Below are positions 8,730-54,170 of a stretch of DNA of 64,000 bases, piece after piece. A program made the translations under genes and the position numbers. Under the pieces are notes generated by a model. It did not search any database. It worked only from the letters and a program-made list of their open reading frames with translations, and was not told the DNA's origin. Source of the DNA: a virus (lineage: Duplodnaviria; Caudoviricetes); IMG/VR virus record IMGVR_UViG_3300032330_002145, positions 8,928-72,927 of that record; one strand, written 5' to 3'. Each line of letters begins with the position of its first letter. Position 1 is the first letter of the stretch.

Positions 8730-9446
8730 ATGAAATTCGGTATTTTAAAATCAAAAGTTGATAGAAGATTATTAGAATCTTACTCTAATCAAACTTTCCA
8801 AAAAGAATTGAAAACATTCAAAAAATTAGTTTTGGAAAATTCAAACATAAGTAAATTGTTTTACTTGTATGATGAATTAAAAACTAATCAAGGTTTGAAT
8901 GAATCAGTTCTTGAAGAATATATTAATGAGTGTACTAAAATTTATGAGAACACCATTAGTAAAATTAAACCGCAATCGATTGAAAAAATCAAAGGTTGGG
9001 TTAAGAATATCAATTCAAAAAATGATTACGAAGATATTGATAATTTATTTTCAAAAAATGTTCTTACTATTGAAAATAAAATCAAAAGTAAAAATCTTAT
9101 TAAAGAATCTTTAAGTAAAAAACCTATTGGTAGAAAAGAACCTATTAAGATTCCAATTTCTTCAATGATTAATGTTGCAAACAATACAATCAAAAATTAT
9201 ATTGAAAATTTAAATGAGACTGAACAAAAAGAACTTATTAAATTTTTGAATATTGATGAGAAAGAATTGGAAGTAAAATTTGATAGTTTAAAAGAGAATG
9301 TTGTAAAAAAATTAAACGTAATTAAAGAATCTGAAAAAGATTCAGAAGTTATCACCAAAATTGATGAAACGATTAAGACGGTTAGTTCAGAAAAATACGA
9401 CAAACTTAATTACTTTAAATTGTCAGATTTAAACGATAATCTTTAA
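8730..9446 (+). CDS. Conserved hypothetical helical protein downstream of portal
   Basis: 238-aa ORF with ATATTTAT motif at 8710-8717. Confidence 0.65.
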   Translation: MKFGILKSKVDRRLLESYSNQTFQKELKTFKKLVLENSNISKLFYLYDELKTNQGLNESVLEEYINECTKIYENTISKIKPQSIEKIKGWVKNINSKNDYEDIDNLFSKNVLTIENKIKSKNLIKESLSKKPIGRKEPIKIPISSMINVANNTIKNYIENLNETEQKELIKFLNIDEKELEVKFDSLKENVVKKLNVIKESEKDSEVITKIDETIKTVSSEKYDKLNYFKLSDLNDNL

Positions 9447-51940: not shown

Positions 51941-53194
51941 TTATTTTATAAGGGTTTTATACCATTCTGCTCTTTCTTTACTAACATTTTTTAAATCGTA
52001 AATGTCTTTAACTGTTTCATACAATCTCTCACCCATGTCGGTAATCATATTTGGGTTTTGAACTAACTTCTTAATATATTTTGCCCAATCGCTGTGATTT
52101 CTATTTTCATCAACCAATAATGCATTACCGTCAACAAAATTACCCTTATCTAATGAATGTTTCAAATCAATAGTGTACGGACCAACAGATGAAGCGATTA
52201 ACGCCTTTTTATAGAAACCTGCTTCAATGACTTTAAGTTGTGACTTAACTCTATTGAAAATATGATTTTTAATTGGTGCTAATGAAATATCCATCTTAGA
52301 ATAATTCATTGCGTATGATGTAACAGGTTTAGTCCAAACACGAGAATAAGGTAATGATAATGATGATTCATAATTATATTCCTTATATTCCATCAAATAT
52401 TTTTTATAGTTTTCATCAACAGTTCTATAGTTATCTGTGAAAATTGATTCGTAACTAGACCAAACTGTTTCTTCAGGTTTGATAGGTCTTTGTTTCTGTT
52501 CACCTGTCTGTTTGTTAATTTCGGTCATGGTACCACGAGTATCAAAACCACATAGAACATATTGAACTTTATCATTTAAATCACTGTTCTTATTAACAAA
52601 TCCTTCAAGTAACATTAAATCATGTAAGTGAGATGAACCTCCCAACCAACCAATACGAATTCTATCTGATTCTAAAGTAGGTTGTTTAAATTGTGGTTCA
52701 TTAGGGTCGATGGCATTTGGGAAAACAACGACATTTGAATTTATCTTTTTAATCTCATCAGCAAAAACTTTAGTTGTTGTGGTAACATAACTTGCTTCTT
52801 TTAAGTTTGCAACAATCTTTTCATGTATCTTATTTTGAACAATCAGTTGATGAATCGGATGTTCTTTTGTAGGTAACCAATAATCATCAATATCGACAAT
52901 TACTACGATACCAATAGACTTTAATAACTTAATGATATTAGGTGTATTGTCGTAGTTATTACCAATGTTTCTATGTACATGGACAATCTGATATTGTTTC
53001 CAATAGTTGATGTCATTTATTTTTGGTTCGTAATCAATATCCACATGAAAGTCATCAGGATATAAATTTTGTAACATTACATGGGGGTCAACGGAACGGA
53101 ATTTTCCTTAACCAACCCCTGTACGGTCAGATGGGAGTACGAGTACTCTAATCTTTTCACGACCATTCAGGGGCGAATCTGTTTTTTGAATCAT
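51941..53194 (-). CDS. GT-B glycosyltransferase interrupted by an in-frame TAA (53110-53108) near its N-terminus
   Basis: ATG 53194 gives MIQKTDSPLNGREKIRVLVLPSDRTGVG*GKFRSVDPHV, in frame with ORF 53077-51941 (IGWLGGSSH, DISLAP, KSQLKVIEAG). Confidence 0.75.
53078..53123 (-). other. Predicted RNA stem-loop enclosing the Gly-stop-Gly site (candidate bypass element)
   Basis: UACA/UGUA, GGGGUU/GACCCC, GG/CC, AA/UU and GGA-AAAU-UCC pairings, derived by hand. Confidence 0.5.
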
Positions 53195-54086
53195 ATTTAT
53201 TTAGTATTTCTAAAATTTTTTTATTATCGTGTTTTAGGTCACTTTCCCAAATCACTTCTAAATTATAACCAAAATTACGAATTAAATCAATCTTATCCTT
53301 ATCGTAATCCCAAATTTGTTTTGCGGTTTTACCCTTTTTCTGATTGAAATAATTTTCATCATATTTTTTCGGATTACAATGCCAATAATCACCAAAATAT
53401 TCTATAATTAAATTTAAGGATGATATGTAAATGTCACATATTTTAGTATCAACTCTATATGACTGGATAGACTGAATATTATGTTCTTTTAAAAACTGTA
53501 TTATTTCTTTTTCTTTTTTTGAGGTAATTCCGGATTTAATTTTACCCAGCCTTCTTGTTTTTTTCATATGTTCAGACATTAATTTTCTAGTTTCCTCCAA
53601 TTCCCCACTATTCCATTTCTTTTTTAAATTATCTGAAACTTTTTTTCTCCAAATAGGATTTGACATTGCATTATCATTCCCGGTTCCTTTACCTTTTCTT
53701 GTTTTAGATAATTTTATTAAAGTTTCTTTTGTATGTTTTTTTCCATAAAAAGGATTACCTTCACCTGTTTGAAGTTTTAATGAACATGGTTTACATAATG
53801 AACTTCCTTTTAATTTGTTTAAATGATTTCTACAACAAATTGTTTTGTCTTTTGATTTTGTTTGGATTGTTTGATTACAATTTGGACAAACCCTTTCTAC
53901 TGAATATTGTTTTCCATCAAATTGAAATTTTAGTTTTGAACACCTGTCTCTTTTCCTAATTAAATTATGTTTATTTAATACTTTTAGAATTGTAGGTTTT
54001 GACAGACCAACTATTTTTGAAATTTTTAAACTGCTTTTTCCTTTCTTATATTCGGAAATTATTTTGTTCTCGGTACTTTTATCCAT
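53157..54086 (-). CDS. Free-standing homing endonuclease (HTH, Cys cluster, NUMOD3 and Vsr/DUF559/EDxHD-type nuclease)
   Basis: GEGNPFYGKKHTKET (NUMOD3); DIY...IIEYFGDYWH...VIWESD; 3' end overlaps the GT start. Confidence 0.85.
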   Translation of the reverse strand: MDKSTENKIISEYKKGKSSLKISKIVGLSKPTILKVLNKHNLIRKRDRCSKLKFQFDGKQYSVERVCPNCNQTIQTKSKDKTICCRNHLNKLKGSSLCKPCSLKLQTGEGNPFYGKKHTKETLIKLSKTRKGKGTGNDNAMSNPIWRKKVSDNLKKKWNSGELEETRKLMSEHMKKTRRLGKIKSGITSKKEKEIIQFLKEHNIQSIQSYRVDTKICDIYISSLNLIIEYFGDYWHCNPKKYDENYFNQKKGKTAKQIWDYDKDKIDLIRNFGYNLEVIWESDLKHDNKKILEILNKYDSKNRFAPEWS

Positions 54087-54106
54087 AATAATTTAATTTA
54101 TAATAG

Positions 54107-54114
54107 ATAAATAT
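54107..54114 (-). promoter_or_regulatory. Putative late promoter ATATTTAT for the endonuclease/GT island
   Basis: Motif match 20 nt upstream of ATG 54086, just downstream of a terminator. Confidence 0.55.
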
Positions 54115-54146
54115 CCCGTATTATCAGAAGGTAACTTTTTTATAAT

Positions 54147-54170
54147 AAAAAACCCCACCGAAGTGGGGTT
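54147..54170 (-). terminator. Intrinsic terminator with UUCG loop
   Basis: aaccccac-ttcg-gtggggtt-tttt. Confidence 0.9.

Follow-up and report, generated by a model that had tools for sequence, protein, structure and literature searches.

Can a gene that meets a stop codon 28 codons after its start still be the source of a normal protein? This question is raised by a glycosyltransferase (GT) gene in the IMG/VR virus record IMGVR_UViG_3300032330_002145, of which we analysed positions 8,928 to 72,927, a stretch of 64,000 nucleotides (nt) that we call the window. The record is a 72.9 kb viral contig that CheckV estimated at about 22% of the genome, which implies a jumbo phage. Directly upstream of the GT gene lies the free-standing gene of a homing endonuclease, and the two coding pieces of the GT gene are separated by six bases, TAAGGA, which we call the gap. 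The original prediction was that the ribosome hops over these six bases and that they form a mobile cassette together with the endonuclease gene. From a comparison of many relatives, we consider it likely that a hairpin-assisted stop-hop, from the take-off codon GGT to the landing codon GGA, restores the normal GT protein, and the predicted hop over TAAGGA is thus supported by comparative evidence. The features of the cassette region are listed in Table 1.

Table 1. Features of the cassette region, in window coordinates
Feature	Position	Strand	Details
GT first coding piece	53111-53194	minus	28 codons, ATG 53194 to GGT 53113-53111; beta1 and SDxxGxG loop
Coding gap, 6 nt	53105-53110	minus	TAA 53110-53108 and landing GGA 53107-53105; absent from intact homologues
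GT second coding piece	51941-53104	minus	387 codons and stop 51943-51941; rest of the GT-B fold
Conserved RNA hairpin, 60 nt	53115-53174	minus	ends 1 nt before the take-off codon
Earlier-proposed hairpin, 46 nt	53078-53123	minus	5' arm holds take-off, stop and landing codons
Free-standing homing endonuclease open reading frame	53157-54086	minus	309 amino acids (aa); stop TGA 53159-53157
Mobile cassette versus empty site	53105-54145	minus	endonuclease, new GT 5' end, 10-codon extension, hairpin, 6-nt gap
Intrinsic-terminator-like hairpin and T run, end of upstream gene	54147-54170	minus	read directly; left cassette border

To begin with, as predicted, the stop codon is flanked by two Gly codons and reading continues in frame, for 387 further codons. 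The first piece encodes MIQKTDSPLNGREKIRVLVLPSDRTGVG, and in-frame reading resumes at AAA (53104-53102), followed by TTC. A search of 5.8 billion proteins returned thousands of GT homologues. The closest intact homologues have 405 aa, are up to 98% identical and read KIKVLVLPSDKTGVGKFRSVDPHVMLQ (TGVGKFRS); one of them, P0002, is 98% identical to the second piece of the window. The six bases TAAGGA are therefore extra, and their deletion restores the exact family consensus, so that the consensus given in the original prediction is verified by close homologues. If homologues naturally read GVGxGK, the stop would be a simple nonsense mutation; they read GVGKF instead.

The gap falls in a critical part of the enzyme. 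Residues S12, D13, G16 and R21 are invariant in an alignment of 28 GT sequences. In the AlphaFold model of a 98%-identical intact homologue (predicted local distance difference test score, pLDDT, 88.5), which has two Rossmann-like domains and is GT-B/GT4-like in the PDB comparison, beta1 spans residues 5-10 and alpha1 begins at residue 17. The model places the gap site at the Gly-rich beta1-loop-alpha1 junction of the first Rossmann domain. Foldseek assigned the model a probability of 1.00 to the GT4 enzymes GlgM, PglA, MshA, BshA and PimB'. The GT also matches PHROG 7162 glycosyltransferase (E 1.6e-41), and Pfam Glyco_trans_1_4 only below threshold. The GT relatives in cultured phages are distant (at most 33% identity), and no near-identical DNA was found among cultured phage records. 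One 378-aa protein, P0017, was tried as a further allele with the gap and rejected as a contig-end artefact without it.

We wondered whether the six bases could be an assembly or sequencing artefact, as the contig was assembled from a metagenome and six contigs break within about 25 nt of the site. However, nine ENA contigs with a GT of 93% identity have the same insert, as do dozens of IMG/VR contigs that come from different samples. The identical GGT TAA GGA junction recurs in independent assemblies from several projects, and variants of it occur in dozens more, which excludes an assembly error; we give an artefact practically no credence. The six metagenome contigs that end at or within about 25 nt of the site do so at L007:1, L008:1, the end of L009, L103:1, L163:1 and L174:1, and L163 begins exactly at the resume codon. 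Assembly seems to break at this site, as it would in samples with a mixture of endonuclease-plus and endonuclease-minus alleles.

The endonuclease gene, which is single-copy in the contig, encodes an N-terminal helix-turn-helix-like region, a Cys-rich region, a NUMOD3 motif and, at the C-terminus, a putative Vsr-like nuclease. The gene stops 47 nt ahead of the TAA, and its last codons overlap the GT start, in agreement with the predicted distance of about 50 nt. The prediction of a Vsr/EDxHD-NUMOD3 enzyme held firmly for the NUMOD3 part (PF07460, residues 106-127, 26.8 bits against the Pfam cut-off of 20.4). For the Vsr-like part, the Pfam family REase_MTES_1575 stayed below threshold (19.6 against 38.2), and the assignment draws on tblastn, which matched phage genes annotated 'VSR endonuclease', and on the motifs CDIY...IIEYFGDYWH...DYDKDKID, which fit the Vsr-like core (Asp, invariant Glu, aromatic-Trp-His, Asp) described in PMC2677866. 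The PHROG families 'homing endonuclease' and 'HNH endonuclease' also match the protein, and a PDB sequence search with it gave no significant match.

We compared the window with L184, the locus of P0002, which turned out to be an empty site. The two are 93-94.5% identical on both flanks (window 55200-54146 corresponds to L184 1851-2907, and window 53140-51001 to L184 3025-5158), and in place of the window's cassette of about 1 kb, L184 holds 117 nt. The terminator-like hairpin at the end of the upstream gene is kept both in L184 and in L002, and the sequences diverge directly after its T run. On the other side, homology between L184 and the window resumes about 30 nt before the gap, and the differences cluster up to the gap.

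The cassette has also moved between GT backgrounds. The loci L002-L007 (the nine ENA contigs) retain only the last 45 endonuclease codons, with the same N-terminal extension, hairpin and TAAGGA. Over the cassette flank, the window and L002 differ at 4 of 130 nt (about 97% identity) and are identical for 20 nt past the gap, whereas their GT bodies are 85.5% identical with a synonymous divergence (dS) of 1.0. A near-identical flank beside a diverged GT body indicates transfer of the cassette, with a conversion tract that ended just past the gap. At its left junction (L002:2745-2800 compared with L184:2874-2950), L002 follows the empty site up to ...GATAATT and then enters the last 45 endonuclease codons, either through an internal deletion or through a partial conversion event. 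In total, six independent states of endonuclease decay, with remnants of 115, 53, 45, 44, about 10 and about 6 codons, keep the gap. With an empty site, mosaic flanks and decayed copies all found, the endonuclease and the insert can be called a mobile cassette, as had been predicted.

We then tabulated how the gap is linked to the endonuclease, using dereplicated alleles with enough upstream sequence. A full endonuclease accompanied 26 alleles with the gap and 11 without it, and an endonuclease remnant accompanied 2 and 1, respectively. No endonuclease was detected for 3 alleles with the gap and 36 without it. The three still bear the N-terminal extension of the cassette, and the gap was found in 0 of the 36 endonuclease-free alleles with a short N-terminus. 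Every insert-bearing allele thus has the endonuclease, a remnant or the extension, which bears out the expected co-occurrence. In the endonuclease tree, the gap-bearing state occupies deep branches, and the gap-free states (a 12-member clade, L182/L183 and L246/L247) are nested as three losses. The gap-bearing state has therefore persisted while the endonucleases diverged to about 45% identity. We conclude that the gap probably arose with the endonuclease cassette and travels with it.

L182 (1615-2584) and L183, a lineage within the endonuclease clade that is associated with the gap, have a full endonuclease, 65% identical, and a long extension in which the conserved Pro and Gly are altered (SLSNSRE); they have neither gap nor hairpin. 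Recombination with an intact GT seems to have removed the gap secondarily. The well-supported 12-member sister clade (a subset of L042-L067, together with L135, L173 and L258-L267) has an endonuclease that is 43-54% identical, adjoins the GT on the upstream side and overlaps the GT start; the GT has a short N-terminus, no hairpin and no gap.

Further, the relatives offer a natural series of gaps. Relatives of the endonuclease were found on many IMG/VR contigs, each directly upstream of a GT homologue. We parsed the junction at the Gly loop in about 290 loci and obtained about 45 distinct insert-bearing alleles or lineages, hereafter hop alleles. In all of these, the insert falls precisely between the codon for GxG/GxS and those for K/R/Y-F-R-S, and at this identical codon junction we observed gap lengths of 5, 6, 7, 8, 9, 10, 11, 12 and 13 nt. 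In the 5-nt gaps (take-off codon/gap: GGT/TAGGT, AGC/TGAGC and AGT/TGAGC), the landing codon overlaps the stop. The 6-nt gaps are GGT/TAAGGA (seen in the window and in four further contexts), GGC/TGAGGT (in no fewer than 10 contexts) and the further forms GGT/TAAGGC, GGT/TAAGGT, GGT/TGAGGA and AGT/TAAGGC. The longer ones are AGC/TGAAAGC (7 nt), AGC/TGACAAGC (8 nt), AGC/TGACTAAGC (9 nt), GGC/TGAATTAGGT (10 nt), GGT/TAAATCAAGGT and GGT/TAACTAAAGGT (TAA...GGT) (11 nt), GGT/TAACCAACAGGT and GGT/TAACAAAACGGT (TAA...GGT) (12 nt), and GGC/TGAATTTAAAGGA (13 nt).

Two rules run through this series. First, the initial gap codon is a stop in every variant; TAA, TGA and TAG are all used, and in gaps whose length is a multiple of three, no sense codon in place of the stop was found among the roughly 45 lineages. 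Second, with one exception that is taken up below, the triplet that precedes the resume codon agrees with the take-off codon at the first two positions or at all three. A Gly take-off codon GGY is followed by a landing codon GGN, and a Ser take-off codon AGY by AGC in five lineages of differing gap length.

This pattern bears on the possibility that a near-cognate tRNA reads the TAA and produces an enzyme with two extra residues (TGVG-x-G-KFR). The gap of the window is in frame, so that a full-length protein would result, and readthrough could accompany hopping. However, gaps of 5, 7, 8, 10, 11 and 13 nt are beyond rescue in this way, and readthrough is ruled out for them; nor would it account for the use of all three stop codons or for the lack of a sense codon in their place. 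Moreover, a two-residue insertion occurs in none of the approximately 120 homologues listed, which argues that a longer loop is not tolerated. We therefore regard readthrough as a highly improbable explanation.

The translation signals of the phage were analysed in the 61 open reading frames of at least 120 aa in the window (1-64000). These end with TAA in 44 cases, with TGA in 17 and with TAG in none. A Shine-Dalgarno-like 4-mer stands upstream of 5 of the 61 (against a background of 9.8%), and the sequence ahead of start codons is poor in G. A search of the window for tRNA genes found none, so that no phage tRNA-Gly is at hand there to explain a landing from GGU on GGA. Start sites poor in Shine-Dalgarno sequences, the stop usage and the lack of tRNA genes together suggest a host with Shine-Dalgarno-independent initiation, e.g. 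one of the Bacteroidota. An alternative genetic code was considered and rejected, because TAA or TGA ends 61/61 long reading frames, each of the three stops is found among the gaps, and many of the gaps have out-of-frame lengths.

We next looked for RNA structure around the take-off codon. The 60-nt hairpin of the window, which encloses the endonuclease stop codon, folds with -27.5 kcal/mol and a z score of -3.6, and 0/200 shuffled sequences were as good. It consists of an outer stem GCCCCUG/CAGGGGU, a stem AUGGUC/GACCGU and two inner stems. For comparison across alleles, we folded the 80 nt upstream of the take-off codon, since an earlier alignment that began 50 nt upstream had cut off the 5' arm. 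The hairpin was present in 35/35 distinct hop alleles (mean -29.5 kcal/mol, mean z -4.7, every z below -2), and its 3' arm either stops 0-4 nt short of the take-off codon or reaches into it. In contrast, the same 80 nt formed the hairpin in 0/51 gap-free alleles (mean -9.9 kcal/mol, mean z -0.2, none below -16.9 kcal/mol).

The arms of this hairpin vary together. Among the pairs are CCCCUG/CAGGGG, CCCCAG/CUGGGG, ACUCCGG/CCGGAGU, ACGCCC/GGGCGU, CUGACCCC/GGGGUCAG and CUCACCCC/GGGGUGAG. Arms from one sequence pair better with each other than with those of other sequences in 1046 of 1178 comparisons. In a structure-blind MAFFT alignment, 71% of cells pair versus 36-48% in slid controls, and changes on both sides were counted in 24 cells versus 8.5 +/- 3 in shuffles, a control that ignores relatedness. 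RNAalifold gave no consensus structure on two alignments, including the one that starts 50 nt before take-off. Most hop alleles have GGG as the first Gly codon, compared with only 2/46 gap-free groups, and this preference is explained by pairing in the hairpin. Likewise, the approximately 10-residue N-terminal extension of the hop alleles has a conserved P-x-x-G-R motif, and hairpin pairing explains why P-x-N-G-R codons are kept even where the endonuclease does not overlap (L216). As the codons of the extension double as the 5' arm and often overlap the end of the endonuclease, constraints on the RNA and on the peptide, such as a possible nascent-peptide signal in the exit tunnel, are inseparable there.

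The original prediction had placed a different hairpin, of 46 nt, around the take-off site. This element does fold (-15.6 kcal/mol, z -2.2), but it is not the conserved one, which is the 60-nt hairpin 5' of take-off. We rejected the 46-nt hairpin and an alternative register of it as conserved elements, since about 72% of cells pair across relatives with almost no compensatory changes. The two hairpins use the same GGGG run and are thus mutually exclusive. A role of this run as a Shine-Dalgarno-like stimulator, as in prfB, was also rejected, because the phage makes no use of Shine-Dalgarno pairing and the hairpin explains the GGG.

To examine whether the interrupted gene is still maintained, we analysed selection on its two pieces. 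The reading frame after the landing codon is intact, with 377-423 codons, in every hop allele that is not cut by a contig end. Between hop alleles, the ratio of nonsynonymous to synonymous substitution rates (dN/dS) is 0.04-0.16 for the GT body and 0.16 for the 15 codons before take-off. Counted back from the take-off site, Leu-11, Ser-7, Asp-6, Gly-3 and Val-2 are invariant in hop alleles despite 2-6 codons each, and Ser-7 is encoded by six codons of both the TCN and AGY types. Such invariance at the residue level despite codon variety indicates that the short upstream piece is selected as protein, and both GT pieces are under purifying selection, as judged from these sequences.

The history of two loci, L164 and L166, extends this result. 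They have a near-complete loss of the endonuclease in common and retain an identical 11-nt gap, while their GT genes have diverged to a dS of 0.89 (dN/dS 0.075). If base changes occur at equal rates at the dS of this pair, eleven neutral sites would all remain unchanged with a chance of roughly 3 in 10,000, by a rough estimate.

Some hop alleles carry an intact intein further down the GT gene, in a GT subfamily that is roughly 50% identical. Since the removal of an intein requires a full-length precursor that has been translated, its presence in hop alleles supports full-length translation. The intein is in frame and has LAGLIDADG-like blocks (L216:3382-5556, also L218, L221, L228 and L230). 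It is inserted at the invariant GWLGGS|SH motif with C...N|S junctions, so that this GT has been struck by two kinds of selfish element.

These data must be weighed against the idea of a knock-out that hitch-hikes with the endonuclease, in which the six bases are a scar or an immunity insert that kills the GT, and the gene looks intact as a result of recent, endonuclease-driven invasions. The cassette is clearly mobile and mosaic, and homing can spread mildly harmful passengers. Yet a second lesion was found in 0 hop alleles across the roughly 45 lineages, the purifying selection reaches both pieces, and in L164/L166 the gap was kept with its sequence conserved after the endonuclease was lost. 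A gap-bearing state that spans deep branches of the endonuclease tree also speaks against the idea. Nor would a plain scar always start with a stop, end with a matched codon that covaries between Gly and Ser, and be accompanied by a covarying hairpin. A dead gene is in our view improbable.

Another alternative is an enzyme in pieces. Translation would terminate at the TAA and restart at ATG 53077, which lies 30 nt after the stop in the window; gene callers report the 378-aa product, which would be devoid of beta1 and the Gly loop and possibly complemented by the free 28-residue peptide. Working 'genes in pieces' split by endonucleases are known in phages (Dassa et al. 2009, PMC2677866). However, the Met at 53077 is not conserved in hop alleles, where IKLQ, IHLQ, IFLQ and VFLQ are found, and there is no other conserved start codon. 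The case foreseen in the original prediction, that only the product from 53077 is made, can therefore be no general solution, as this Met is absent in several insert-bearing lineages. The lack of Shine-Dalgarno use in the phage also argues against a restart. In the model, Met28 lies inside helix alpha1, and the product would lose a core strand together with the invariant S12, D13 and G16. In addition, a restart leaves unexplained the matched landing codon directly before the resume codon at all gap lengths. We consider such a split or truncated enzyme unlikely.

Taking into account the observed anatomy, empty site, gap family, hairpin and selection on both pieces, we propose the following model for the stop-hop, in which we infer the hop itself, its efficiency, the driving role of the hairpin and the immunity of the target. 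The cassette, inserted between the upstream terminator and the GT, has replaced the first 18 GT codons with its own 28-codon version ending in the gap. Ribosomes would start at ATG 53194 and translate through the 60-nt hairpin until peptidyl-tRNA-Gly stands on GGU in the P site, with UAA in the A site. If the stop is decoded slowly while the 3' arm of the hairpin is unwound inside the ribosome, there would be time for the hairpin to refold behind it. Refolding could pull mRNA out at the exit side and help the peptidyl-tRNA leave GGU. The mRNA would slide by 6 nt, the tRNA would re-pair with GGA, the next matching codon, and decoding would resume at AAA, giving ...TGVGKFRS... without an additional residue. 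At up to 13 nt, the gaps are similar in length to the hairpin 3' arm. By analogy with MobA and gene 60 of phage T4, it is plausible that the gap may protect its carrier from cleavage by splitting the conserved target. A tuning of the amount of enzyme, which the original prediction offered as an alternative, would be a further possible effect.

Several points weigh against the stop-hop. The case for it is a comparative one. In the window, the take-off codon GGU and the landing codon GGA are mismatched at the wobble position; tRNA-Gly(GCC) would re-pair at 2/3 bases, and the efficiency may be low or modest. Weiss and colleagues reportedly saw a wobble-mismatched landing, CUU to CUA, which would parallel GGU to GGA here. 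The sole exception to the matching of codons, L054/L240, takes off from AGT and lands on GGC, a mismatched pair. The low dN/dS of the GT partly predates each invasion, since the cassette moves horizontally. L182/L183 and the 12-member sister clade carry the endonuclease without the gap, which is thus not obligatory for carrying it. Finally, the phage makes no Shine-Dalgarno use (5/61), and mechanisms worked out in Escherichia coli may not transfer to its host.

The closest known system is gene 60 of T4, whose bypass insert, Bonocora and colleagues are said to have shown, is carried by the MobA homing-endonuclease element. The MobA nuclease is of the HNH type, whereas the enzyme here combines NUMOD3 with a putative Vsr-like nuclease. 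In both systems a free-standing endonuclease makes up one mobile cassette together with an untranslated insert in the gene next to it, a Gly take-off codon is directly followed by a stop, and a matched landing codon stands immediately before the resume codon. Both also have a conserved mRNA structure 5' of or at the take-off site and an uninterrupted protein product, which is presumed in our case. They differ in gap size (50 nt in gene 60, 5-13 nt here and 6 in the window) and in the host gene (a topoisomerase there, a GT-B glycosyltransferase here). In our series the nascent chain has just 26-29 residues at take-off, Ser as well as Gly codons serve for take-off, and the system is known from sequence comparison. 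In the literature consulted, the gene 60/MobA bypass cassette and its homologues are described in topoisomerase genes only (Manning & Atkins, bioRxiv 10.1101/2022.08.31.505936). The refolding role proposed for the 5' stem-loop of gene 60 parallels our hairpin model (10.1101/2024.12.09.627546; PMC5462505; review PMC5009743).

Shorter hops have been obtained by design. In the synthetic stop-hops of Weiss et al. 1987 in E. coli (reviewed in Atkins et al. 2016, PMC5009743), which were engineered and of low efficiency, a codon is followed by a stop and a synonymous codon at which the peptidyl-tRNA re-pairs, so that nine bases encode one amino acid, as would be the case here. Unlike these, the present site is natural, conserved, linked to a hairpin and found in many lengths; the same review states that an in-frame stop hop was not known from nature (Atkins et al. 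2016, PMC5009743). The byps of Magnusiomyces capitatus mitochondria are translationally bypassed inserts (PMC5009743) that are likewise short, mobile, located in coding regions and corrected at translation, with take-off and landing pairs that are sometimes imperfect. It is mitochondrial ribosomes that pass them, with an unused codon instead of a stop in the A site; a genome has many such sites, and the byps show neither an endonuclease gene nor a flanking hairpin pattern. The Vsr-like (later EDxHD) homing endonucleases of 'fractured genes' (Dassa et al. 2009, PMC2677866) resemble ours as free-standing phage enzymes with a Vsr-like core, which is putative in our case, inserted at conserved enzyme genes, with start overlap and their own control elements; here too the GT of some relatives bears an intein. 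The difference is that here the endonuclease lies upstream and the host gene is broken by a few bases only. Our literature search found no description of an endonuclease-linked short hop in a GT gene.

Taken together, the comparisons indicate that the locus in the window is probably a very short natural counterpart of the T4 gene 60 bypass. In bacteria and phages, bypassing has been documented essentially for one element, T4 gene 60 with its topoisomerase homologues. The present series varies the gap base by base from 5 to 13 nt, together with the take-off codon (Gly or Ser), the stop codon and the hairpin sequence. It is a ready-made mutational study of how far, and by which rules, a peptidyl-tRNA slides, and through it the part played by a refolding 5' hairpin can be tested directly. 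It would also add a second case, independent of the first, of a selfish endonuclease joined with a recoding signal in a single mobile unit. For annotation it carries a warning, as 'truncated' genes beside homing endonucleases may be whole. It is an evenly balanced question whether the hairpin, take-off codon, stop, 5-13 nt gap and matching landing codon constitute a portable recoding module, which homing-endonuclease cassettes would carry so that the lesion they make in an essential gene is repaired at translation. If so, this module would be the first natural stop-hop family, on ribosomes without Shine-Dalgarno pairing, and it may occur in other genes of uncultured phages.

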